Source of the DNA: Spirochaetia bacterium
GTDB taxonomy: Bacteria; Spirochaetota; Spirochaetia; SP-2023
Assembly (NCBI GenBank): GCA_965263295.1
Contig: OZ253665.1
Span: 800,001 to 864,000 of the forward strand
Length of the DNA: 64,000 bases
Direction: 5' to 3'
The translations under genes were made by a program, and so were the position numbers. Positions 7,039-64,000 of the stretch are shown piece after piece. The notes under the pieces were generated by a model. That model worked only from the letters and a program-made list of their open reading frames with translations. It did no database searches and was not told where the DNA came from. Within the stretch, counting starts at the first letter, position 1. Each line of letters opens with the position of its first letter.

Positions 7039-7121
7039 AGCTGATCAAAATATTGGCCATAGCCGTATCCCCGGTTCCACAAGAATATAGAAAGATTACG
7101 GCGAAAATATTTGAAAAATAC

Positions 7122-7150
7122 TTGCCAAAGTTGGTTTTGGGCAATATACT
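7122..7150 (+). promoter_or_regulatory. Putative sigma70 promoter of the 7280 lipoprotein gene
   Basis: TTGCCA-17 nt-TATACT; AAGGAGG RBS about 8 nt before ATG 7280. Confidence 0.55.
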
Positions 7151-7279
7151 AGAGCTGTTGTAGGCGCTTCTATTGGCAAGTTTGCCCGTGCCTGCGAACC
7201 AATATTATTATTTTCTATTTCATATCGTTCCTCATTTAAAATTTGTAGCCCACATTCTTTTTATAAGGAGGATACAGAT

Positions 7280-10200
7280 ATGTCATCTGACCTAATTTTT
7301 AAACGGCTCTTTGCCGTCAGCCTTGTGCTTTTGGCCCTGTTTGTTTGGGGTTGTGAGGATGATTCATCCGATTCGGACTCTGGGCCCAAAACATTAATTG
7401 ACCTGGACTCAAAGAGAATTGACGATACCGGGGAAATTCAATTTTATATTGATTCCTTTATTAAAGACGAGTACATCGTCTTGGAAGATAGCGAGCTGGG
7501 CACGGAGGATCTGGCCGATTTTTGGGCTGATGTGGTCGTGCGCTGGGGTCTGCGCCAAAAAATGGCAGACAGTGAGGCGACAGATGAAGCCGCCGAAAAT
7601 TCAGAAGCTGAAGCAAGCGCCTCTGAAGATTCTGCTGAGACTGCGGATGAAATTGCCGAAACTTTCTGGCTGCAGCGGAGTGAAAATTACAATGATGGCG
7701 GCGATGCCACTGAATATCAGATCACGGCGGTAGAGGGTGAAAAACAATTTTTTGTCCTCGATCCTCAGGATTGGAAAGATTATTTGCCTGTTGAATGGTC
7801 CGATATTTCCGCCGGTGAATTAGAGGTGGTGGTTGAGGCTTTCTTGGCCACCCAAACTGCCGAAGGGCAATTCCAGGCCACGGCCAGCATTGAGCTGCCG
7901 GAAAAATTCTCGATGCGGATACAGCCTTGGGCAACTTTAAGTCCTGCCACTGTAGCCGATCCGAAGATATACTGGGAGATTGGCACGACGGGATTCGCAA
8001 ATGGCGAGGATGAGCGCGATGCCGCACTCACGCTTGATGCGGCGCCGACCGCTGTGTCGGTGGGTTCGGATGTGATGGTCGTAGTTTCTGCGAAAGGCGG
8101 TGTAGAATCGATGAGCAGCTTTACCTACGAGTGGCAGTTGCTCGACGAGGATGGAGCAGTGCAGGAGGAAAAGCAGGAAACTACCCAAGGTTCTGCGAAA
8201 TTCACTTTTACAGCTGAAAATCCGGGTATAAAGACGGTAAAAGTTGAGGTCAGCGATGACCGCGATGGTAGGGCGACGGCCGAGCGAAAATTTGATTTCA
8301 AGGTGGCGCCAGCTGGCTTGCGGGTTGTCAACCCGTCGGGATCGCAGATTTTGCAGCTGGCTAGTGGTGAAAAGCCAAGTATGACATTTGAGGCCGTGGT
8401 TGATGGAGAAGCTGATGGGCTAAGTTACACTTGGCATCTGTATGCGCAAGAAGACCAAGACGACCAAGACGACAATGGCGACTGGTCTGAATCGTCCCAT
8501 ATAATAGGCGAGGGAGCGAGCCTGGAGTATGAGTTTCGCGAAAGGGCGGGCCGCTACTTGGTTAAGGTTGAGGCGCAGGATGAGCATGGCCAGGCGGCGC
8601 AGCCGGCATCCGCTGGGGCAGATAGCGTGGAAGTGCAGCTGAATGCGCAGCCGCAGCTGAGCTTTGCGCAGCCGACGGCTGGGAACTCTGGCACGGCCAG
8701 GGCGGGCGAAACTGTCAACTTTGCAGTGACTGTGAGCGACGAGGAATCAAGTGAGGGTTTTAGATACCAGTGGGAGTCCCGGGCACCTGGGGCTGGCGAC
8801 TGGACGCAAGGCGCGCAGACAGAGGCTTTTACGCTGGCAACGAAGGGTTTTGCAGCAAGTGAGGGTCCGTATCAAGTGCGGGTGACGGTTAAGGATGAGG
8901 ACGGCGGCAGTGCCGAGGCGGTTTACCAGTTGACCTTGGAGCCTAACGATGCGCCGGAGATTAACTTTCTGGCTGGCACGGTTGCAGATGGTAAATGGTT
9001 GCAGCTTGAAGACGTGAATGATCCTACGGAGCCGCAGGCCTTTAAAGTTTTGGCTCAGGACGAAGATGGCGGAGAGCTGACCTACAGCTGGGAGGTCAAT
9101 GGTGTGAAGCAGGAAGGCGAAACAGGCCCGGAAGCCAACCTGACCTTGTACTCGCCGCTAAAGGGTTTGAGTCAGGATGAGATTGAAGCGATGAGCGCCA
9201 ATGCGCGCCACGAGGTGGTGGTGATAGCAACGGTGACGGATGACATGGGGGAGAGCGTGTCGCAATTTCGAAAACTGTACGTGAATGTGGCGCCAAGGAT
9301 TGCTAATTTTACGAAGCCTTCAAGCGGAGACTCCAGCACGGCCAGGGTGGGCCAGGATATTGGGTTTGCCGTGAATGTTAGCGACGAGGAATCAAGTGAG
9401 GGTTTTAGATACCAGTGGGAGTACCAGGCACCTGGGGCTGGAGACTGGACGCGAGGCGCGCAGACAGAGGCTTTTACGCTGGCAACGAAGGCACTTGCTT
9501 CAAATGAGGATCCGTATCAGGTGCGGGTGAAGGTCATGGATGAGGACGGCGGCAGTGCCGAGGCAACCTACGGCTTGACCCTGCAGCCCAACCGTGCGCC
9601 AACGCTAGAGTTTGCGGATGGTACGGTGGCGGAAAGCATTTGGCTTGAAGAGTCTGTATGGGAGATTGGGGATCTTAAGAATTGGAGAGTTATAAAAGCT
9701 CGGGTTGATCCTTCTCTGCTGAATCCTACATGGGTGCAGCTTGAGAGCTTGGATCAGGGTACCCAATTATCTGTGGTGGCCCAAGACCTAGATGGCGATG
9801 CTTTGACCTACGACTGGACGGTCAACGGCGAGACTCCGCAGACGAAAGACATCCAGGTGACGAAGACGCTAACCAACGAGACTGTGAAGCTGCAGCTGTA
9901 CTCGCCCGTAAAGGACAAGACAGAAGATCAGATTAAAAGTATGAGCGCTGAAGAGCGCCACAAGGTGGTGGTTGCGGTGACGGTGAGCGATGACATGGCA
10001 AACAGTGATAAGTTAACGCGAACATTGTACGTGAATGTGGCACCGGAGATAGAAGAAATGATTTCGCATAAGGGAAAGTATCATGGCGAATTGCAGTCGA
10101 TCGGAAAGGATCCAGACGGTGGTGATTTTATACCACTTTTTGAGTGGCAGTTTAGGACATATGGTAGCACTGATGATTTTGTAGCCACATCTCCGGCATA

Positions 10201-10342
10201 TATATATCGCTCATTTATGACGCTCGATCCTAATGTACTAGATATGGAGATGCGGATCAGATCGGTAGACCGTCATGGAGGCGTGAGCCAATGGCTCTAT
10301 CATGATCTTTTGCGAGCCGACTACTTTCCCGATTCCCGGTAG
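7280..10342 (+). CDS. Large acidic surface lipoprotein with tandem Ig/PKD-like beta-sandwich repeats
   Basis: Lipobox FVWGC; recurring DxDGxxLTYxW ... YxVxVxVxDxxG and NxAP motifs; paralogous to the ORF at 63206-64000. Confidence 0.8.
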   Translation: MSSDLIFKRLFAVSLVLLALFVWGCEDDSSDSDSGPKTLIDLDSKRIDDTGEIQFYIDSFIKDEYIVLEDSELGTEDLADFWADVVVRWGLRQKMADSEATDEAAENSEAEASASEDSAETADEIAETFWLQRSENYNDGGDATEYQITAVEGEKQFFVLDPQDWKDYLPVEWSDISAGELEVVVEAFLATQTAEGQFQATASIELPEKFSMRIQPWATLSPATVADPKIYWEIGTTGFANGEDERDAALTLDAAPTAVSVGSDVMVVVSAKGGVESMSSFTYEWQLLDEDGAVQEEKQETTQGSAKFTFTAENPGIKTVKVEVSDDRDGRATAERKFDFKVAPAGLRVVNPSGSQILQLASGEKPSMTFEAVVDGEADGLSYTWHLYAQEDQDDQDDNGDWSESSHIIGEGASLEYEFRERAGRYLVKVEAQDEHGQAAQPASAGADSVEVQLNAQPQLSFAQPTAGNSGTARAGETVNFAVTVSDEESSEGFRYQWESRAPGAGDWTQGAQTEAFTLATKGFAASEGPYQVRVTVKDEDGGSAEAVYQLTLEPNDAPEINFLAGTVADGKWLQLEDVNDPTEPQAFKVLAQDEDGGELTYSWEVNGVKQEGETGPEANLTLYSPLKGLSQDEIEAMSANARHEVVVIATVTDDMGESVSQFRKLYVNVAPRIANFTKPSSGDSSTARVGQDIGFAVNVSDEESSEGFRYQWEYQAPGAGDWTRGAQTEAFTLATKALASNEDPYQVRVKVMDEDGGSAEATYGLTLQPNRAPTLEFADGTVAESIWLEESVWEIGDLKNWRVIKARVDPSLLNPTWVQLESLDQGTQLSVVAQDLDGDALTYDWTVNGETPQTKDIQVTKTLTNETVKLQLYSPVKDKTEDQIKSMSAEERHKVVVAVTVSDDMANSDKLTRTLYVNVAPEIEEMISHKGKYHGELQSIGKDPDGGDFIPLFEWQFRTYGSTDDFVATSPAYIYRSFMTLDPNVLDMEMRIRSVDRHGGVSQWLYHDLLRADYFPDSR
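8690..9580 (+). repeat. Intragenic direct duplication of one Ig-like domain (offset 645 bp)
   Basis: agcgacgaggaatcaagtgagggttttagataccagtgggag at 8735 and 9380, with near-identical sequence continuing. Confidence 0.85.
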
Positions 10343-10464
10343 TTGAATACGGGCCAGAGGAACTCTGAGAGGTAACCACGAAAGTACACGAAGACTGCGA
10401 AAGGTCACGAAAGTTAGGCAGGGGAGGCGGGAATTTTCCTTTTGGTGGCAGGGAAAAAGTTAAA

Positions 10465-10602
10465 ATCGATCATCCTGCTTTTGGTCCCGCTATTTATAAA
10501 GTCCAGGCCAGATTGGAAGACGACCATGGTGGAAAAAGTTTGCCGCGAGGTGCTAGGACTAAAAAATTTTACGATGGGTGGGAGAGCTTCCAGCCCTTCT
10601 AG
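10465..10602 (+). pseudogene. Orphan 3' gene fragment (about 45 codons) homologous to the C-terminus of the 63206-64000 ORF
   Basis: Reads IDHPAFGPAIYKVQARLEDDHGGKSLPRGARTKKFYDGWESFQPF* versus IDNPILGPAIYEVQAILTDSYNAESLPRGAKTRKFYDGWEGFKPF*; no start of its own. Confidence 0.9.
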
Positions 10603-10665
10603 AGAGGCGGAGAAGATGGAACGTTAATTGGCATGAATTTCTGCCTGTGATATGACGAGCCGCGC

Positions 10666-10698
10666 AAGCGAGTAGCCTTTAAGGTTGCTCGCTTTTTT
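10666..10698 (+). terminator. Rho-independent terminator after the orphan 3' fragment
   Basis: AAGCGAGTAGCCTT-T-AAGGTTGCTCGCTT hairpin followed by a T run. Confidence 0.8.
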
Positions 10699-11448
10699 GG
10701 TTTTTGGGGGACCACGAAAAGCACGAAAGAGGGCGAAAAGTCACGAAATTTAGGCAGGGAAGCCGCGGGTGGCACGATGGGGAGCCGCGGGTGACAGGGA
10801 AACTTTAAAGGGGACCACGAAAGGGCACGAAGACAGCGAAAGGGCACGAAATCTAGGCTGGGGGGCTGTGGGTGACAGAAAAAAAGGGGCCGGATGGACG
10901 ACGTGAGGCGCGGGGGGCGTCCAGGGAGTAGGCGCGGTGTTTTAGGGTTTTTCGTGTCGTTCGTACTTTTTAGTGTATTTCGTGGTTACTTGGCCCGGAA
11001 CCACGAAAGGCACGAAAGGTGGCGAAAGGTCACGAAATTTAGACGGGGGAGCCGCGGGTGGCACGACGGGGAACTTTGAAAGGGAACCACGAAAGTACAC
11101 GAAAGGTTGCGAAAGGGCACGAAAGTTAGACAGGGGGAGCCGCGGGAGGCACGACGGGGAGCTGCGGGTGACAGGGAAAAAGTAAAAAAAGGGGACGGCA
11201 GCCAGGAAGGGCGTCCAGGCAGCAGGCGCGGTGTTTTAGAATTTTTCGTGTCGTTCGTACTTTTTTTGTGTTTTTTGTGGTTACTTGGCCCGGGACCACG
11301 AAAGGCACGAAAGGTGGCGAAAGGTCACGAAATCTAGGCGGGGGAGCCGCGGGGGGCAGGGAGCCAAGAAGGGCGCGAAGGTCAGAAGAGGTTCTTTTGT
11401 GAAATCCAATCCAATAACGGGTTAATAACTGTAATTTAAATAAAATTC

Positions 11449-12847: not shown

Positions 12848-14470
12848 ATGAATGAGAGAAAATTTATAAAGAAAATCTTACCGGGACTGGCGGCGGCATG
12901 TTTAACGGCAGTTTGTGGATGCGAGGATGCCGTTGGGATAGCAGGTTCTCAGATACAAGCGGATAGAACCTACTTTCAAAAACCGGCATATACGGCCACA
13001 TCCTTTAGGGTAATTGATCGCGCTAGTTTGTCCGCAGCAGAAAGACCGATGATTGCCGCTCTACAAGGTATCGTGGCCAATAAAACATCCACTCAAATTT
13101 ACATCACGGATTCGACGATGCGTGATGGCGAGTACCAGGACGGAGATGCTTATCTAATCTGGTTAAATAATTTAAGAGATAGGCATGGAATAGGTTATAC
13201 CGAGGCGGCGAGCGCTGCAGCATTGGTTGATGAATATAAAGAATATATTGATGGTTATATCTTGTACCAGAGCGGAAACAGCTCCATAAATGTCGCTTCT
13301 TCTTTGGCGGGCATATTGAATGCCATTCCTGTGGCAAAAAATATTGAGCTTGATATTTCAGCCTACGGGCTGCGTCAGGTCCTGGATGCCTCAGATAAGG
13401 ACGAAGCCTGGTGCAAGGAAAATTACTGGGATCAATTCAGCCATGACGTAATCATTGAGCAGAAAGAAGAAAATGACCTGTGCCTTAGGGATTTTGCCGC
13501 CATGCACAAGAGTATGGTATTTTTTGACGACACGCCAGACTCCCCATTCCGGACTTCCATTATGGCCAGCATGAACGATGACGCCGCAGTGATGGGCTGG
13601 GGGCAAGTAATCGGTTCGGAAGACCGTTTTATTATGAACAGCAGTCAAAATGGTGTGCATTACCTGCCCCTTGACTGGGGCAAAAACTTATCGGTACTGA
13701 GTGGATTTGATCCAAACCGTTCTTACATTCAAAAAACACAGGGCGAACCTGCATACGAAGAAAACGTGCACTACGTGGCATTTATCGTATCCGATGGCGA
13801 CAATATTCAGTGGACACTCGGCAGGGGCAATGAGAAAAGATGGTGGGGCAGCGATGCGCGTGGCGATTTCGATGTGGGCTGGACATTTCCGCCGGCATTG
13901 ATGGAACTGGCACCAACGGTCCTAAAGTGGTACTACGATACGGCTTCGACAAATGATAATTTCGTTATCGGCCCATCGGGCAGCGGTTTCTTTTTTCCGG
14001 GTGCCTATCCGGCCGCAGAACTTGAATTGGGCCTTGAAAGATTGAATGATTTTATGGGCAGGCTGGACATCAACAGTGTCGTTCTACTGGGATACAACGA
14101 TTGGGACGACACCAAAATGCTTAGTAGATATACAAGTCAGGAGAATATTGACGCTTTATTCTATTTTGAATGGTATGATTTTGGGCTCAATACACACGGC
14201 AGAAAAATTAAGTGGCTCAACGGCAAGCCGGTCATATCTTGTGGCGAGAAGCTGTTCGAAAGAAAAAAGGAATGCTTGGGCAATATCAACAAAGCTTCCA
14301 CAGATGTCTACAACGATGGGGCATATACCGTCGTATATGCCCATGCATGGGAGCCCAACATCATGGATAACATCAAATATGTTGTCGATAATTTAAACCA
14401 AAATGTGAGGGTCGTCACGCCGGCGGCAATGATTAAGATTGTAAATCACTTCTACAACCCCCAATTATGA
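12848..14470 (+). CDS. GxGYxYP-family putative glycoside hydrolase, lipoprotein
   Basis: Lipobox-like VCGC; ALQGIVAN, SDGDNIQW, GPSGSGFFFP (GxGYxYP-like) and HAW motifs. Confidence 0.75.
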   Translation: MNERKFIKKILPGLAAACLTAVCGCEDAVGIAGSQIQADRTYFQKPAYTATSFRVIDRASLSAAERPMIAALQGIVANKTSTQIYITDSTMRDGEYQDGDAYLIWLNNLRDRHGIGYTEAASAAALVDEYKEYIDGYILYQSGNSSINVASSLAGILNAIPVAKNIELDISAYGLRQVLDASDKDEAWCKENYWDQFSHDVIIEQKEENDLCLRDFAAMHKSMVFFDDTPDSPFRTSIMASMNDDAAVMGWGQVIGSEDRFIMNSSQNGVHYLPLDWGKNLSVLSGFDPNRSYIQKTQGEPAYEENVHYVAFIVSDGDNIQWTLGRGNEKRWWGSDARGDFDVGWTFPPALMELAPTVLKWYYDTASTNDNFVIGPSGSGFFFPGAYPAAELELGLERLNDFMGRLDINSVVLLGYNDWDDTKMLSRYTSQENIDALFYFEWYDFGLNTHGRKIKWLNGKPVISCGEKLFERKKECLGNINKASTDVYNDGAYTVVYAHAWEPNIMDNIKYVVDNLNQNVRVVTPAAMIKIVNHFYNPQL

Positions 14471-20458: not shown

Positions 20459-23400
20459 ATGCCTCACAGAGTTGATTCCTCCGCCTCCTTTCCTCGCTTG
20501 CAATTAATCTTACAGCTGCTTTGGGGGCTCCTGCTTCCCGCATTGTATGTGGAAGCAGGGGCACCGTTATTGAGGGCTCAGGCCCCTGTTGGTGCGGCGG
20601 TGGATGATGCTGGCGATTCACAACGTGAACAACGCTTGCAAGCACTCCGCCTGCGGGCCCAACAGGATGATATTGCTACAGCGAGTTATTTTGAATTGCA
20701 GGAGTTGGCGCGTGAATTGGGCGTCGAGCCGAACAGCGATATCAATACTTTGCGGGCAGCGTTGTACAGCAAATTGGATATTCCGGCGCCGGCCAGTGAG
20801 ATTGCAGACCAAGAAGATCTGGTCATTCGTATTGAATCAGCCCAGAAGGCCAAGGCTTTTACAGTCGAGCGCCAAGAAGATGACAGCGAAGATTATTTTA
20901 AAATCAGCGGGGGTGTCAAAGTTTACATTACAGACAAGCGTGAAGGTTATGAACATAGCGTGTATGCCGACACCATCACGTTCAACCGCAAACAGAATAC
21001 CATACGTGCCGAGGGTCAAGTTATATACATTCAAAAGAAACTTGACAGTAATGATGATAATGACACGGAAAAGTTTACCGGTGACTCTTTGATTTTTCGC
21101 TTGCGCGTCTGGCGCGGAGTTATTTTTTATGGCGTCTTCTCACGCGCCCAGACGACGGAAACTCAGCGCCCGATTGATGTTCATGCCAGTTCCTCCAATC
21201 CAGAAAAGACAAAAGCCGATCCTGAGGCCAATGCCACCGAGGACGACGACTCGTTGTTAGGGGAGAGCGTTCTGGCTCAGAATAATATCCATTATTATTT
21301 TGACGGTGAAAAGATGCGCAAGGGCAGCGACGATGTATTGGTACTGGAAAAGGGAGCTATCTCCACCAGTGAAAGCGAAGAGACGGAGTATTTCCGCCTG
21401 GGATTCCACCGCCTGTGGATTTTTGGCAAGCCAGAGTGGGCCATGCTCAGTGCCACGTTGTATGTCGGTCACATTCCCGTGCTGTACTTGCCCTACTATT
21501 ATCATAATGATAGCCAGATATTGTTCCACCCGGTATTCGGCTTGGGCGAAGCTTACGGTCAATTTATTCAGACAACTACTTATCTTTTGGGCAAGCCAGA
21601 AGCGGGCAGCACGGATTCTTTTTCCTTTTTGCCGGTTAACTCGGGCGCAGACGAAGATAGTGAGCTGAAACTGGAAGCTTTACATCTCGTTGCCGCCGAT
21701 AATGAAGACAAAAAAAAAAGCAAGTTAGGGGCGGACAGTTACCTCAAGTTCATGCTGGATTATTACAGTTATGTCGGAATATTTAGCGGTATAGATGGGA
21801 ATCTGACGGATTTGGGAATTATTGACAGTCTAGTTTTTAATGACTCACTGGCTTATGCCTATTCGCTGGAGGAACGAACTGGCGCCGGCTTTGCCACTGC
21901 GAAACCGTACATCTTGGGCGATGATGGCAAGTACAGCTTGCAGCCGGTTGAAACTAATTTGTTTGGACTGGCGCTACCTTTCCGTTATGGGTTTGAAAAC
22001 AGTTTGAGCAGCGAGAATGATTTTGTGAATATTGACTTCAAGCATTATTCAGATCCGTTTTTTCGCCGTGATTATTTAAACCGCAAGGAAATATTTGACT
22101 GGTTGGGCTATGGCTTAGAGCGCATGCAGAGCGATAACGACAAGCTCCTGGAAAAGTGGCGCAAAAAAGAATCCGTTATTTCCAGCTATAAATGGGAGAT
22201 CGGTTTGAACTTGAGGCCGCGCTTTAGAACTTCACTCATCTCTTCATTTGAACTCAAAGCTTATCTTGCCTCATACTTTGACAAGAAGACTGATTCTGAG
22301 CGCAAAGCCTATGACCCAACGCGTGAATTCTTCTACCCGGACAAGTTTTTTCTCCCAGATACTTCGCTACGTATGTCGGGAACTATTTGGCCTCTGCAAC
22401 AAGACAGTCAACAATCAAAATACAGTGGGGACCTGCCCATCCTAAAAGATTGGAAATATCAGCCCAATTCTGATGAAACCAGCACGGCAACAGATCAGGA
22501 AGCAGCCGCCGCGACTACAGCCGCCGCCAATGCCGACAAAATAATTCAAAAGCCTGAAGGACTTGAAAAGATTAAGCGCGACGAACAAGTTAAAACAGTC
22601 AGTTTTGAGACCACCTACAACCTGACGTCACAAAACCTGATGGAAAGCAATACCGATAATGATCAGTGGACCCGCGTTGAAGATATCGAATTGAACAATA
22701 AGGAATTGAAATTTTCTGGCAGAGAGGCTCTGCAGCTGGTCACGGGCTGGAAAATTTTTGATGACTTTTTGAATATCGACTTGCAGCACAGCCTGGATGC
22801 CCATATTGCACACTACTTCGACATCGCAGACCAAACCGAGGATTCCAACGACCTGACGGCGACGAAGCAAGCTAATAAATGGAACTGGAGTGAAGAATCC
22901 GACATTGTGCTTAGACCGTTTCATCTAATTGACTGGTTTGCCAATACCTCCATCACTCACAATATTCAGGCTGTGATGTATGATTATAAATATAATGTCG
23001 AGAGCCAAAACCATGAAGGTACATTTTTGGACCTAGGACAGTCAGATGCCGAGTTACGCGAGCGTATCACTGCCCATAGTTTGGTTACCTTGCTTGACTT
23101 TCAGCCAATTAAAGATGCTTATAATCCGATTAACAACTTACAAGTCAGCATCAGCATGACGAACGCCCTGCCTCCTTTGGAGTCCGAGAATACTTTAAAA
23201 AATCGCCTGTTTTTTGAATTTTTCCACTGGTCTCATGACGTTTCAATTGAATTCCAACAGAGTGGGGATGACGATCCAGATTTCTACGTTCAGCCGCTGA
23301 ATTATACTTCAATCTATAAGCCCATTGCCAAGGTGGAGCTTAAAAACATGATGATATATAATTTTGAAGCCGAGGCTAGGGGAGAACAGGAACCTCACTT

Positions 23401-24067
23401 TGACAAGGAAGAGATCTCGTTTAATGCCTGGTGGTTTAGTGGCGGGTTGTATTTCCTGTATACCCAACCTTATGTGTGGGACAAACAAAACCTGGGCTGG
23501 GAGGCTAAGGGAGACCTTGAACTGATTCCGGATAAAACCTTTTTGGCTTTTGAGCTGACGACCAAGGAACGTTACTTGTGGAAAAACCGCATGCTGTACT
23601 ATTTTACCTTGAACATGCGTTGGGATCAGGACTTGATTCGCTATAATGAAACTTCCTCTTTAACTTTGGACTTTACGTTCAGTTTCTTTATTTATGAATT
23701 TTTAAACCTTCAGATATCCTACCGCATGAGCAATGAACGGCTCTATCTCTATTATCCCGGCATGAAAGAATTTCTGGGCTTTACACAGGATTACTCCCTT
23801 TTGCAGGACTTATTAAATAGTGTGAGCTTTTGGGACGAGAACTTGCAAAAGAAGGGCTTGTTCAAGATGAAAGACATCCGCGTTTTGGCCATCCATCACT
23901 TGAAGGACTGGGATATGATTTTCGAATTTGCCGGTAAGCCTAAGCAAGTTGGCCGTAATCTGAGCTGGGATTATGCCATCGGTTTCTACCTGCGTTGGAT
24001 ACCCATTCCTTTAATCAAGCGTCATGTCACTTTTGAAAATGATATTTTGCGTACAGATGCGCGTTAG
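20459..24067 (+). CDS. lptD: LptD-like outer-membrane protein (spirochaete type)
   Basis: N-terminal beta-jellyroll-like segment (GGVKV...ADTITFNR...AEGQV), LYVGHIPVLYLPY, P.FG...G.FIQTT, aromatic-rich C-terminal barrel. Confidence 0.6.
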   Translation: MPHRVDSSASFPRLQLILQLLWGLLLPALYVEAGAPLLRAQAPVGAAVDDAGDSQREQRLQALRLRAQQDDIATASYFELQELARELGVEPNSDINTLRAALYSKLDIPAPASEIADQEDLVIRIESAQKAKAFTVERQEDDSEDYFKISGGVKVYITDKREGYEHSVYADTITFNRKQNTIRAEGQVIYIQKKLDSNDDNDTEKFTGDSLIFRLRVWRGVIFYGVFSRAQTTETQRPIDVHASSSNPEKTKADPEANATEDDDSLLGESVLAQNNIHYYFDGEKMRKGSDDVLVLEKGAISTSESEETEYFRLGFHRLWIFGKPEWAMLSATLYVGHIPVLYLPYYYHNDSQILFHPVFGLGEAYGQFIQTTTYLLGKPEAGSTDSFSFLPVNSGADEDSELKLEALHLVAADNEDKKKSKLGADSYLKFMLDYYSYVGIFSGIDGNLTDLGIIDSLVFNDSLAYAYSLEERTGAGFATAKPYILGDDGKYSLQPVETNLFGLALPFRYGFENSLSSENDFVNIDFKHYSDPFFRRDYLNRKEIFDWLGYGLERMQSDNDKLLEKWRKKESVISSYKWEIGLNLRPRFRTSLISSFELKAYLASYFDKKTDSERKAYDPTREFFYPDKFFLPDTSLRMSGTIWPLQQDSQQSKYSGDLPILKDWKYQPNSDETSTATDQEAAAATTAAANADKIIQKPEGLEKIKRDEQVKTVSFETTYNLTSQNLMESNTDNDQWTRVEDIELNNKELKFSGREALQLVTGWKIFDDFLNIDLQHSLDAHIAHYFDIADQTEDSNDLTATKQANKWNWSEESDIVLRPFHLIDWFANTSITHNIQAVMYDYKYNVESQNHEGTFLDLGQSDAELRERITAHSLVTLLDFQPIKDAYNPINNLQVSISMTNALPPLESENTLKNRLFFEFFHWSHDVSIEFQQSGDDDPDFYVQPLNYTSIYKPIAKVELKNMMIYNFEAEARGEQEPHFDKEEISFNAWWFSGGLYFLYTQPYVWDKQNLGWEAKGDLELIPDKTFLAFELTTKERYLWKNRMLYYFTLNMRWDQDLIRYNETSSLTLDFTFSFFIYEFLNLQISYRMSNERLYLYYPGMKEFLGFTQDYSLLQDLLNSVSFWDENLQKKGLFKMKDIRVLAIHHLKDWDMIFEFAGKPKQVGRNLSWDYAIGFYLRWIPIPLIKRHVTFENDILRTDAR

Positions 24068-59190: not shown

Positions 59191-62100
59191 TCAATCCTTC
59201 CGGGGGGGAACAAGGTGGACTTCGTCTATTACACTTTGGCTAAGGTCTGATTTACCATCCCACTCATCCAGTCTCTGATTCACTTTCATAAACCAGAAGG
59301 AGTTCTTATCGCCCCAACGCTTAGGCTTATATTCAGATAACTTAAGAACCAATTGTCCCTGCTCGGTTGCGCTCCAGCTGATATCCGCCTTCAGCTCAAA
59401 CTGCTCATTTCTTTTAATCCAACAACTGCTAGGACTTGTCAAGAGAAGAGCCTTTTCCTTCCAACCCGTCCAACAACCATTCGAGCCAACCATAATTAAG
59501 GATCCCCCCTTACTACTGACCTTGATCTGTTCCTTATTACCATCATTATTTGTTAATTTCCATTCCATTTCTTGGTACTGCTCAGCTATATAAGCGGATT
59601 CAGAACAAATCGCCGGAGAAATAACAGAAAACCACTCAGAGGCTTCACTATAACCGAATCTCCAGAAGAATTTATCATCCTTAATTTCAAGGTAGCGAGA
59701 ATTGTCAGTATATGTTAACTCTTTAAGAAGGAATTTCTTGTTTTTCAGATCCTCTTTTTTCACCTGTCGCCGTTGCGGGACAATAAATGCTCGCAAGTCT
59801 TTTTCTCCTTGTAGCAATTTGAAGGTGACGCCGTCGTTTGTTTTCTTCACTTGGTAAGCTCCTTCCGCGAAAAGGCTACTTAACCCTTCAGTGGCATCTA
59901 TGTTCTTCATGTACAGGACAAGTTGGTCGGCATCGTTCAGGTCGATAGAAAAATGGCCTCGCCAATTTTCGGCTGTCATTTTAGTAAACATGCCGTTGGC
60001 TTGGCTTTTCCACAGTGCGCAGGACAAAACTATGTGGCCATTTTTATCTGCTGGTTCGGCCGCGATATTGGCGAAAGTCAGGCCATATACCGTGCCCTCG
60101 CTCACCGTTTTTTTGCCCAAGGACAGGACATTTTTCTTACTAGCAAAAACTTTGCCAAAATAATTTTTATATTGCTTTTTCAAATTTTCTAGCTTGGCTT
60201 CACTCTTGGTCTGAAAGCCCCCCACGGTCTTAGATGTTTCCTGCGCTGCGCTACCCGTGACGACAGAAGAGACGCTATATCTAATTTCTGATTCCCCATC
60301 CTTGTCTACTGGCTTGGCTGAGATGAATTCAAATTTCAGATCGGAGTCAGTCTGGAATTTATCAAATTCTATATCGGCTTCTTGGGGTTTAGTCCCAAAC
60401 GCGGCCTTGTTCAAAACCTTGATTTTTACGGTTGGTTTGTTTACTTCCTTAGAAATCTTTTTATTCGCAGCCTGAATCTCGGCTTCCAGAGCGCTATCTC
60501 CGATACGGCCTCTAATACCTGAAGGCGGTGGTCCATATTTAGAAATATCATAGGTTTTAGTGGGAGATAAGATTTGCGCAAATTCTTTGCTTTTCTCAAA
60601 GCGGTCCGTCGTGTCGCGACTTTCAGCTGCTTCGGTTCCCGTCTCTGCATCTTCTTCAACAGTGGTCTGATGCTGGACATCCAGAGCGCTATCTCCGATA
60701 CGGCCTCTAATACCTGAAGGCGGTGGTCCATATTTAGAAATATCATAGGTTTTAGTGGGAGATAAGATTTGCGCAAATTCTTTGCTTTTCTCAAAGCGGT
60801 CCGTCGTGTCGCGACTTTCAGCTGCTTCGGTTCCCGTCTCTGCATCTTCTTCAACAGTGGTCTGATGCTGGACATCCAGAGCGCTATCTCCGATACGGCC
60901 TCTAATACCTGAAGGCGGTGGTCCATATTTAGAAATATCATAGGTTTTAGTGGGAGATAAGATTTGCGCAAATTCTTTGCTTTTCTCAAAGCGGTCCGTC
61001 GTGTCGCGACTTTCAGCTGCTTCGGTTCCCGTCTCTGCATCTTCTTCAACAGTGGTCTGATGCTGGACATCCAGAGCGCTATCTCCGATACGGCCTCTAA
61101 TACCTGAAGGCGGTGGTCCATATTTAGAAATATCATAGGTTTTAGTGGGAGATAAGATTTGCGCAAATTCTTTGCTTTTCTCAAAGCGGTCCGTCGTGTC
61201 GCGACTTTCAGCTGCTTCGGTTCCCGTCTCTGCATCTTCTTCAACAGTGGTCTGATGCTGGACATCCAGAGCGCTATCTCCGATACGGCCTCTAATACCT
61301 GAAGGCGGTGGTCCATATTTAGAAATATCATAGGTTTTAGTGGGAGATAAGATTTGCGCAAATTCTTTGCTTTTCTCAAAGCGGTCCGTCGTGTCGCGAC
61401 TTTCAGCTGCTTCGGTTCCCGTCTCTGCATCTTCTTCAACAGTGGTCTGATGCTGGACATCCAGAGCGCTATCTCCGATACGGCCTCTAATACCTGAAGG
61501 CGGTGGTCCATATTTAGAAATATCATCGGTTTCAGTGGCAGATAAGATTTGCGCAAATTCTTTGCTTTTCTCAAAGCGGTCCGTCGTGTCGCGACTTTCA
61601 GCTGCTCCGGTTTCCGTATCTGGCTCTACTTCTTTTTTAACAATTTGAGGTTCTTCAATAGTAGTCTTCGATGTGGACTTGCCCCCGCCAGTCTCGGTTT
61701 CTTCTTTTTCTTCTGTAACAGTCTCACTTGCAGTTTCTTCGGTTCCCGTCTTTGCTACTTCCTCGACAATCTCAGTTGCGGGCGTGCCCTCGCCAGTTTT
61801 TTGGGATTCTGCTTGTTCTTCTGTAACAGCCTCTCTTTCAATTTCTTCGGTTCCCGTATCTGACTCTACTTCTTTTTTAACAATTTGAGATTCTTCTTCA
61901 GTTGTCTCCGATGTGGACTTGCCCCCGCCAGTCTGAAAATCTTCTTTTTCTTCTGAAACAGCGTCACCTGCAATTCCACCCTCTACAGTTTCAGCAATCA
62001 TTTTCGAAACAGTTGTCGGGGGCAGCAAATTCTCATCATTTTGGTCGTTTGCAATTGTCGGACCATTAAGCAACGTCAATTTGGCGGCGACTTCTAGTTC

Positions 62101-62545
62101 CGTATCTTCGTTTATTACTGGCATGCCTGGCGGCGGTATATCCGGCAGATTTAATTGGGCTTTATTGTCATTTTCTTCAACTTGATCTTCATCCCAATGG
62201 TATATCTTCGGCGTGTCTTTTATGCGCAGGCCCCAGAAAATTGAGCACTGATCCCATGTCTTCTTGTCGACGACGCGCTCACCTTCGGCGCGACGGCTAT
62301 CATAGATGAGTTGGCCTTTCAGTTCGAATTTGTCGACAACATATATCTTCTGCGTAGCATCCGCTGCATTAGCATTGACCAGGCTTTCATCCTGTAACTT
62401 AATGCGAAAAACACTTTGGGGGGTTCCTTGGCCTTCTTCGGTATCATTATCATTACAGCCTGCGAGCAGCAGGAAGGCCGATATATATATATATATATAT
62501 ATATATATGGTGACTTAGAAAACTAAAATAATTTTTGCGTGGCAT
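59191..62545 (-). CDS. Large repeat-containing surface lipoprotein, frameshifted at an (AT)14 tract (putative phase-variable gene, OFF as assembled)
   Basis: AAGGAGG, ATG 62545, MPRKNYFSFLSHH(IY)n; the frame after the tract reads SAFLLLAGC NDNDTEE... and is continuous with ORF 59191-62124. Confidence 0.85.
60486..61606 (-). repeat. 195-bp (65-aa) tandem repeat, about 5.75 copies
   Basis: ccagagcgctatctccgatacgg recurs at 60486, 60681, 60876, 61071, 61266 and 61461; copies look identical except the N-terminal one. Confidence 0.97.
62481..62508. repeat. (AT)14 microsatellite inside the signal-peptide coding region
   Basis: 28-nt AT run read directly from the sequence. Confidence 0.97.
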
Positions 62546-62602: not shown

Positions 62603-62821
62603 AGGGGGCAAAAATTGGGCAGCTAATACAACGCAGGTATTTATCCCACATCTGTGACGCATTTTGAGCCTAGCTCTTCAATGAAATACTATTTTGAATT
62701 AATTAAAATTTGTAGTCTTATTATGCAATAATGATATTTTTAGTCAACAGTTTTGCAAAAATATTATAAATTTTCATATTATTTTAATTTTGTGTATTTC
62801 GTGGTTCCTTTCACAGTCCCT

Positions 62822-63343
62822 GGCCAAGTAACCACGAAATACACTAAAAAGTACGAACGACACGAAAAACCCTAAAACACCGCGCCTACTCCCTGGACGC
62901 CCCCCGCGCCTCACGTCGTCCATCCGGCCCCTTTTTTTCTGTCACCCACAGCCCCCCAGCCTAGATTTCGTGCCCTTTCGCTGTCTTCGTGCCCTTTCGT
63001 GGTCCCCTTTAAAGTTTCCCTGTCACCCGCGGCTCCCCCGTCTAGATTTCGTGACCTTTCGCCGTCTTCGTGCCTTTCGTGGTCCCCCTTTCGTGGTCCC
63101 CCAAAAACCAAAAAAGCGAGCAACCTTAAAGGCTACTCGCTTGCGCGGCTCGTCATATCAACGGCAGAAATTCATGCCAATTAACGTTCCATCTTCTCCG
63201 CCTCTCTAGAAGGGCTTGAAGCCCTCCCACCCATCGTAAAATTTTCTAGTCTTAGCACCTCGCGGCAAACTTTCTGCATTATAGCTATCTGTCAATATGG
63301 CCTGGACTTCATAAATAGCGGGACCCAAAATAGGATTATCAAT
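62822..63343 (-). repeat. Right arm of long inverted repeat (partner 10465-10995), containing a CACGAAA module, terminator and gene 3' end
   Basis: Reverse complement matches the left arm as described for that feature. Confidence 0.92.
63110..63142 (-). terminator. Rho-independent terminator of the 63206-64000 gene
   Basis: Same hairpin and T run as 10666-10698, on the minus strand. Confidence 0.8.
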
Positions 63344-64000
63344 TAGAACTTCATCCTGTATCCTTGAATGGGTTAAGTTCTTCTTTTCATCCCCAGCAGT
63401 CCTCCAATTGGATATCCTATGATAGTACGGAGGATTGAGATGGTCGAAAGTGAAATCGCCCCGGTGTTTTTTATATATCCACCGGACTCTCAACAATTTC
63501 TCTCCCTCGGGGTCTTCTCCTCCAACCAGAGTAAATTTATAATAACGATATCTATAAGACGTTTCAGTTTTTTGCCTCCAGAATCCCGACATCTGAACTG
63601 AAGCCCTAGTGGAACCGTCATATCCCATTTTCACGGTGGAACCGTCATATCCCATTGCCAAAGCGAGACTTCGCGCATGGGGATCTTCTAGAAAACTGCC
63701 ATCGTACCTAAGATATTCCGCTATCATTCTAGTCGGCTGTGTTGGCGCCACGTTTACGTGCACCGTATTGGGAATTGTGCCAGAACTGGCGATACCATCG
63801 CTCACCGTCACCTCAACTACCGCACGGTGGCGATCAGGCATACTCATCGCTGCAATCTCATTCTTACTCAGATCCCTTAGCGGCGAGAACACAGCCAAGC
63901 TTACTTCCCGGCCTGTTTCATCTTGAGGCACGCCATTGACCGCCCAGCTGTAAGTCAACGTATCGCCCTCGGCGTCAGTACCCTCCACAGCGAATTTCAC
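63206..64000 (-). CDS. 3' part of an Ig/PKD-like repeat surface protein, paralog of 7280-10342 (5' end outside the window)
   Basis: DAEGDTLTYSWAVNGV...FSPLRDLSKNEIAAMS..RH..VV.VTVSD...VNVAP matches the repeat domain of the 7280 protein. Confidence 0.85.
   Translation of the reverse strand: MKFAVEGTDAEGDTLTYSWAVNGVPQDETGREVSLAVFSPLRDLSKNEIAAMSMPDRHRAVVEVTVSDGIASSGTIPNTVHVNVAPTQPTRMIAEYLRYDGSFLEDPHARSLALAMGYDGSTVKMGYDGSTRASVQMSGFWRQKTETSYRYRYYKFTLVGGEDPEGEKLLRVRWIYKKHRGDFTFDHLNPPYYHRISNWRTAGDEKKNLTHSRIQDEVLIDNPILGPAIYEVQAILTDSYNAESLPRGAKTRKFYDGWEGFKPF

Follow-up and report, generated by a model that had tools for sequence, protein, structure and literature searches.

The stretch analyzed here, which we call the window, comprises the 64,000 nucleotides (nt) at positions 800001–864000 of the single-contig, 2.41-Mb genome of a Spirochaetia bacterium (G000; 92.6% complete); coordinates refer to it unless the genome is named. 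It carries a gene for a predicted surface lipoprotein built of immunoglobulin (Ig)-like modules, gene A, together with the 3′ part of a related gene, B, and behind gene A lies a short remnant that resembles the end of gene B (Table 1). In these proteins we call the last domain the tip and the preceding PKD/Ig-like modules the stalk. The N-terminus of A has a basic start, a hydrophobic stretch, Cys25, and an acidic linker, as read from the sequence by eye without a predictor, and its modules follow in the order U, V, Z, X, Z, X, then the tip. Gene B continues past the window (genome 863206–867102, minus strand, 1298 amino acids [aa], start at genome 867102). Locus A has unique flanks, with sdaA upstream and a sugar-binding-protein gene downstream, and both A and B are further recorded from other assemblies. 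With gene A as the query, no related loci were found in the genome and metagenome contig collections, although the closest records possibly lie outside these, and an Rfam search of the window matched no family. No RNA record is listed for the region either, a result without bearing on expression.

G000 was compared with three congeners, G001, G002, and G003; G001 and G002 are sister genomes that carry the lipoprotein family. G000 has three FlaA (PF04620) genes, as do the three congeners, and such genes occur in 0 of 14 control genomes, which marks G000 as a spirochaete.

Common arms and different middles of genes A, B, and E

The preliminary description of this DNA, made from its letters and open reading frames, held that A and B share a stalk domain ending in VNVAP and then diverge strongly. 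The motif is indeed present in both, and their tips (98 aa in A, 178 aa in B) have no significant BLASTP match to each other. What they share is more than one domain: they are 98% identical over 7104–9633, which takes in the probable promoter and 2.35 kb of coding DNA. Between 9633 and ~9764 gene A is unique, and there follow a stretch like that of another family gene, M2, a unique tip, the stop, and a repeat arm, until from 10457 to 11017, through the terminator, the DNA is B-like again. A third family gene, E, repeats this pattern, having the left arm in common with A (97% identity over 2185 nt) and the right arm in common from the terminator on, with a middle of a third type. Thus A, B, and E are three loci with two common arms and different middles.

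The A block (7104–11017) and the B block (genome 862797–867278) are near-identical, inverted, and 52 kb apart, and they flank the turn in GC skew at ~840–850 kb; recombination between them could flip the intervening DNA.

Table 1. Features of locus A and of the part of locus B in the window
Feature	Position	Strand	Basis
Upstream region with probable promoter and leader, common to eight class-A genes	7104..7279	+	blastn depth 8 from 7104
Gene A (predicted lipoprotein of 1020 aa; signal peptide and Cys25, then N-terminal domain, six PKD/Ig-like modules, and tip)	7280..10342	+	PF00801 PKD, E 6e-20
Mosaic stretch, last stalk module of A, 89% identical to M2 (other N-terminal class) and not to B	9765..10039	+	blastn
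Tip of A, a diverged Y-type module of 98 aa with 45% GC, present once in the genome	10046..10342	+	E 5e-8 against internal Y modules
Dispersed repeat, single arm, which at its end overlaps the orphan start in a partial-homology patch at ~10450–10466	10355..10466	+	repeat consensus
Orphan 3′ end of a B-type tip, 45 codons and stop, without upstream start or stalk DNA	10457..10602	+	sequence comparison
Terminator-like hairpin (10666–10694) and T run, common to the A, B, E, and M1 loci	10666..10704	+	sequence comparison, hairpin scan
Dispersed-repeat cluster, inverted arms ~220 nt apart	10709..11370		sequence comparison
Terminator and repeats that follow gene B, homologous to 10603–11017	62797..63205	-	sequence comparison
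3′ part of gene B, last 264 codons; tip at 63206–63742	63206..64000	-	frame continues past window end

The orphan end behind gene A

A start-less fragment of 45 codons with its own stop and terminator had been reported about 120 bp after the stop of gene A, and had been read as a variant of the C-terminus of B with mostly amino-acid-changing differences; our comparison confirms this in each part. The fragment, which we call the orphan, matches the end of B at 30 of 45 residues (tblastn, 62% over 50 aa, E 1e-16), and 19 of the 21 nucleotide differences change an amino acid. It sits in a 77-codon open frame whose sole possible starts are two TTG codons within the fragment, and the only other copy of its sequence in the 2.4-Mb genome is the end of B itself. 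The 120-bp gap in front of it, on whose nature the preliminary description was silent, is an arm of a genome-wide repeat; the repeat consensus reaches 10466 and the homology to B begins at 10457, an overlap marked by short partial homology.

The differences between orphan and B are unevenly placed, with 21 in 135 coding nt but 2 in the 117 nt after the stop (p = 1e-4), and a profile of internal Y modules fits the orphan of A better (9.3 bits) than B's own end (0.6 bits). The orphan is thus what is left of a sister tip that had formerly been distinct from the tip of B, and, as the preliminary description had supposed, it is more than a neutrally decayed piece of B.

Contigs of two sequencing runs from two studies (X1, which is possibly the window's own sample, and X4) cross the junction of repeat and orphan without any difference, and it is therefore not an assembly error. 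A scan for terminator-like hairpins found 1 where shuffled sequences gave 1.8, so the hairpin behind the orphan rests on its position and its presence at four loci. Behind the tips, where remnant, terminator, and repeats lie, no immunity-like partner gene was found; the only other frame there, of 61 codons (10442–10627), overlaps the orphan in a different reading frame. Contig depth over the A tip is 53 against 61–68 in its flanks in X1, 28 against 116–128 in X3, and nil against 4.5–5.4 in X4, and the contig with the B-type tip has depths of 36, 180, and 2.0 in these runs; since contig depth does not measure copy number and nothing can be concluded from a gap in a low-depth run, these values are a hint that strains differ in tip content and are not used as evidence.

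The lipoprotein family

A tblastn search of the genome gives ten full genes, in line with the multi-gene, polymorphic family of Ig-type lipoproteins that had been proposed. Besides A and B these are C (genome 989301), D (1651711), E (2004010), F (2085424), G (2087821), H (2198562), M1 (74471), and M2 (2294355). Genes A to H (class A) have a common upstream region and N-terminal domain, and M1 and M2 have another N-terminus and upstream region in front of the same kinds of module. When profiles are drawn from the internal modules alone (U, V, X, Y, and Z types), each gene has a different module string, and 8 of the 10 tips match such a profile at E <= 1e-3, D and H being without a match: those of A, B, M1, and M2 are of type Y, that of E of type Z, and those of C, F, and G of type X (E 4e-17 to 1e-3, with 17 tips searched). 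The tips are therefore mostly diverged stalk modules. Their GC content is below that of the body in all ten genes (39–50% vs 48–54%).

Among seven full-length members scanned against Pfam, all but H match PKD-type families and none matches PF02368; five tips scanned in the same way gave one sub-threshold PKD match only. In the ESM Atlas, residues 776–1020 of A reach PKD clusters at 0.90 and the B tip has weak matches (0.80). Structure prediction, which the preliminary description had proposed for the tips, showed no more than a strand-rich sandwich: two predicted folds of low confidence (pLDDT 46.6) are mostly strands, Foldseek returned nothing for them at E <= 0.001, and the best VIA Z of 6.7, to FnIII/Ig-like sandwiches, is too low to indicate anything beyond a common arrangement. 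From signal peptide and fold class, the family proteins may be adhesins or recognition targets.

Homologues of 1000–3600 aa with common N-termini and different ends are found in G001 and G002; none was found in G003 or in 37 more distant genomes, so the family is present in 3 of the 4 genomes of the genus. In a protein library, the Y-module profile has 2061 matches at E <= 0.001, for the most part to large proteins with many repeats, and it also picks up the M2 tip with the same shifted end described below (P0054); the profile has no match in G001–G003. At two loci of G002 (L039 and L040), tandem arrays of lipoprotein-like paralogues of 330–430 aa adjoin giant genes, with a short tandem repeat in front.

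Other orphan ends

The preliminary description had looked to orphan tips elsewhere in the genome as support for its proposal, and a second orphan does lie behind M1. This remnant comes from the 3′ end of a tip like that of E (63% over 54 aa, E 2e-17), the same terminator follows it, and M1 takes its last codons and its stop from it in a different reading frame. The junction of M2 is the same apart from a small deletion, with 57 nt of the remnant left before the repeat cuts it off. There are thus ten full genes and three short remnants (at A, M1, and M2).

When the last 153 nt of 1386 long frames were searched against the genome, 24 orphan-like copies were found, two of them from the family. 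Nine come from one repeated 314-codon frame, a putative transposase, and various genes account for the others. The family is therefore enriched for orphan ends, which also occur outside it. One candidate, 74 nt long and 430 nt behind gene H (genome 2200461–2200534), is the 3′ end of an unrelated ABC ATPase gene and was rejected.

Variation in the tips

Variation is concentrated in the tips. Between C and G, the body has 3 differences in 1308 nt, the tip has 31 in 438, and the DNA behind the tip has 0 in 130; between M1 and M2, the tip has 46 in 282 nt and the dead remnant that they have in common has 0 in 57. The preliminary description had expected mosaics of stalk and tip between strains, and alleles with the same stalk and a changed tip do occur in other assemblies. 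Gene D and P0027, from another assembly, are 92–100% identical in the body, 24–68% in a tip patch, and 90–94% after the patch; F and P0010, likewise from another assembly, have a similar pattern, the two pairs together spanning 90–100% in the body and 24–68% in the tip, and P0009, a G-type gene, carries an F-like patch immediately ahead of its tip. H and P0024 are evenly diverged, without a tip-focused pattern. The ratio of amino-acid-changing to silent substitution rates (dN/dS), which the preliminary description had proposed as a check, exceeds 1 in some tip pairs; this suggests positive selection on the tips and falls short of significance (p = 0.10, four pairs pooled). Selection, or conversion of patches out of a population pool, may account for the concentrated variation.

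The dispersed repeat and a PF13366 nuclease gene

The dispersed repeat forms 65 clusters and occupies 21 kb of the genome. It lies within 300 nt behind 9 of the 10 family genes, compared with 27 of 1087 other long frames. The sole PF13366 nuclease gene of G000 (genome 1901353–1901697; L050) is embedded in arrays of the same repeat; G001 has four PF13366 matches, G002 has one, and G003 has none. The repeat of G000 was not found in G001–G003, the 12 loci of G001 and G002 giving one 20-nt match only. Several other predicted lipoprotein families of G000 also have the repeat behind them (among them genome 1898167 and 1977078; 462452; 1919922 and 931617; two frames of ~3600 aa).

How the orphan ends may have arisen

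On balance we favor, as rather probable, a reading in which the 3′ ends of family genes are replaced by recombination, leaving scars of sister-gene ends. At locus A a B-like gene would have received a donor piece consisting of the last module, a new tip, its stop, and a repeat arm. The left join would be a homologous crossover in the stalk near 9633 and the right join a microhomology crossover in the old tip at 10457–10466; this second, imprecise crossover would leave the last codons of the old tip and the terminator as a scar. Ordinary conversion of the RecA type, from copy to copy and from strain to strain, would use the conserved stalks as its left arm and the tip ends, terminators, and repeats as its right arm. 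Tips would be the distal and exposed domains, and may vary to change or escape recognition by a host, a predator, or phage. No expression would be expected of the orphans, and they would be no store of alternative tips, although the orphan at A could allow a B-type tip to be copied back.

Several observations support replacement. Gene A resembles B on either side but not in between, and E repeats this; the last module of A is 89% identical to a gene of the other N-terminal class; tips vary far more than their flanks; and a repeat arm stands at the A junction. Of the original proposal, that tips are exchanged or displaced by recombination in a layout like that of Rhs and contact-dependent inhibition (CDI) loci, the first half thus gains support from the second orphan, the mosaic genes, and the alleles with the same stalk and a changed tip, and the second half is not. 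The orphans have no stalk upstream and hold only the last 45–50 codons, and the tips are homologous Ig-like modules; they therefore cannot supply an alternative C-terminus by one crossover. Having neither stalk DNA nor starts, they are thus scars and not reserve cassettes of the Rhs type.

Other results weigh against replacement. No donor for the A tip is found in G000, and no intact gene with the orphan's exact version of the end was found, by a weak search that gave two candidates and missed B itself. At the M1 junction there is no repeat, and loss of DNA within a single gene would account for it equally well. The genome-wide scan draws 22 of its 24 rows from non-family genes, and no orphan tip lies behind the 15 family-like frames in 11 regions of G001 and G002, which are parts of those genomes and not the whole. 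Tip dN/dS is 0.73–2.82 in five pairs, not significantly above 1, that of stalk modules is also ~0.8–1.1, and a site-compatibility test for mosaicism in five short-class proteins gave p = 0.08.

The strongest alternative is deletion after tandem duplication, akin to the collapsed tandem array that the preliminary description had named as a simpler account: A and a B-like gene would once have stood in tandem, a deletion that began in the repeat and reached the second tip would have left the end of that tip behind, and the variability of the tips would be a separate matter. M1 and M2 would on this account derive from an out-of-frame deletion inside one longer gene, and we consider the two deletions jointly possible but rather unlikely. 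Genes G and F do stand in tandem with repeats between them, the tip of M1 is the shortest Y module and directly abuts its remnant, and ordinary genes have orphan ends elsewhere in the genome. A truncated 261-codon frame of G001 (L035:7046–7831), in which the stalk jumps into a non-coding tail common to L031 and L034, resembles such an event and is likely an internal deletion. However, locus A is B-like on either side of a foreign middle, and E is built alike, for which one replacement needs fewer steps, and deletion leaves variable tips between identical flanks unexplained.

A dedicated switching mechanism, in which the PF13366 nuclease (of the PD-(D/E)XK type) would cut the repeats and drive tip exchange, with the orphans as landing pads, we judge to be quite improbable. 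It would account for the position of the nuclease gene amid the same repeats and for the repeats behind the family genes and at the A junction, and PF13366 occurs in the three genomes that have the family and is missing from G003, which lacks it, although four related genomes carry no statistical weight. Ssn/NTS is a precedent for a repeat-recognizing nuclease that shapes recombination, from a different nuclease superfamily (PMC11893778). On the other hand, the repeat is missing at the M1 junction; G001 and G002 have varied family genes although the G000 repeat was not found there; and the repeats may have been copied along with the genes. In its full form, nuclease and repeat would make up an undescribed surface-variation system, in which cuts behind Ig-module lipoprotein genes would lead ten loci, within and across strains, to exchange their distal domains, and a locus would use its retained orphan end and terminator as a landing pad for the return to its former tip; this, too, seems improbable to us.

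Neutral decay of a duplicated B, with which the 19 changing differences in 21 are compatible (Fisher p = 0.24), and a template repeat of a diversity-generating retroelement are both very improbable and largely refuted, the former by the excess of differences in coding over flanking DNA and by a family motif better kept in the fragment than in B, the latter by the finding of only 6 of the 21 differences at adenines of the fragment and of the PF00078 reverse transcriptase in 0 of 4 genomes, in a search that was positive in 3 of 14 controls.

Neighboring genes

Next to a sugar-binding-protein gene lies a gene for a putative glycoside hydrolase lipoprotein of the GxGYxYP family (12848–14470), and a frame of 1202 aa (20459–24067) has no Pfam match. 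Directly behind B, on the minus strand, is another lipoprotein gene (59191–62517) with an (AT)14 run in the region encoding its signal peptide; its start and its lipobox lie in different frames, as in genes switched on and off by strand slippage.

Comparison with known systems

The closest likeness is to the Lig proteins of Leptospira. The ligA and ligB genes have an identical upstream region and nearly identical first domains and then differ, and both duplication and inter-strain recombination have been reported for them (PMC7821625). LigA, LigB, and LigC are spirochaete lipoproteins with tandem Ig-like domains (PMC7821625); in the present family, too, paralogues have upstream region and N-terminal domains in common and differ distally, and gene A has a predicted lipoprotein signal peptide. 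However, Lig domains are Big_2 (PF02368) whereas those here are PKD-type, and there are ten genes in two N-terminal classes here against three Lig genes. Orphan ends and a flanking repeat are features of the present family; the passages on Lig in PMC7821625 make no mention of either.

With Rhs and MafB loci the family shares a conserved body, a variable and AT-richer tip, and silent tip DNA downstream of an intact gene, which has been read as earlier displacement (PMC2935791). Rhs orphans, as described there, keep a piece of the conserved core and a whole tip, often stand in long strings, and have non-homologous tips that are conserved between species, whereas the orphans here are one per locus and the tips are homologous and vary in patches. 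Unlike those of Rhs, CDI, and MafB loci, the present orphans begin inside the tip, with a repeat arm (A) or the gene's own end (M1) upstream, and most tips are homologues of stalk modules rather than unrelated toxin domains. Tips related to the orphans, and not identical with them, are attached in B and E.

Silent-cassette systems (Neisseria pilE/pilS, the Mycoplasma synoviae haemagglutinin, Borrelia) also have variable regions between conserved recombination arms and patchwork alleles (PMC2935791), but here there are full-length genes with their own upstream regions and short remnants, not a single expression site with a cassette array. In Ssn/NTS a small nuclease gene is likewise tied to a many-copy repeat around important genes (PMC11893778); Ssn is, however, a GIY-YIG enzyme, and the activity of the PF13366 nuclease here is putative. 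By its sequence features, then, the family appears to work like Lig diversification with Rhs-like displacement, and it is a member of neither family. A mostly open-access literature search found no description of such remnants in Ig-type lipoproteins or adhesins, its title matches all concerning toxins and type VI secretion or being unrelated.

If the scars are deletion debris in a Lig-like family, the case is an ordinary one; if repeat and nuclease drive the exchange, a widespread and uncharacterized nuclease family would gain a function. Replacement would extend C-terminal displacement, known from polymorphic toxins, to non-toxin Ig-type lipoproteins, and tip-focused diversification is seen in a spirochaete genus. 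These loci carry their own controls, a dead remnant and flanks that stay unchanged beside a diverging tip, and selection and conversion can therefore be told apart from strain data alone.

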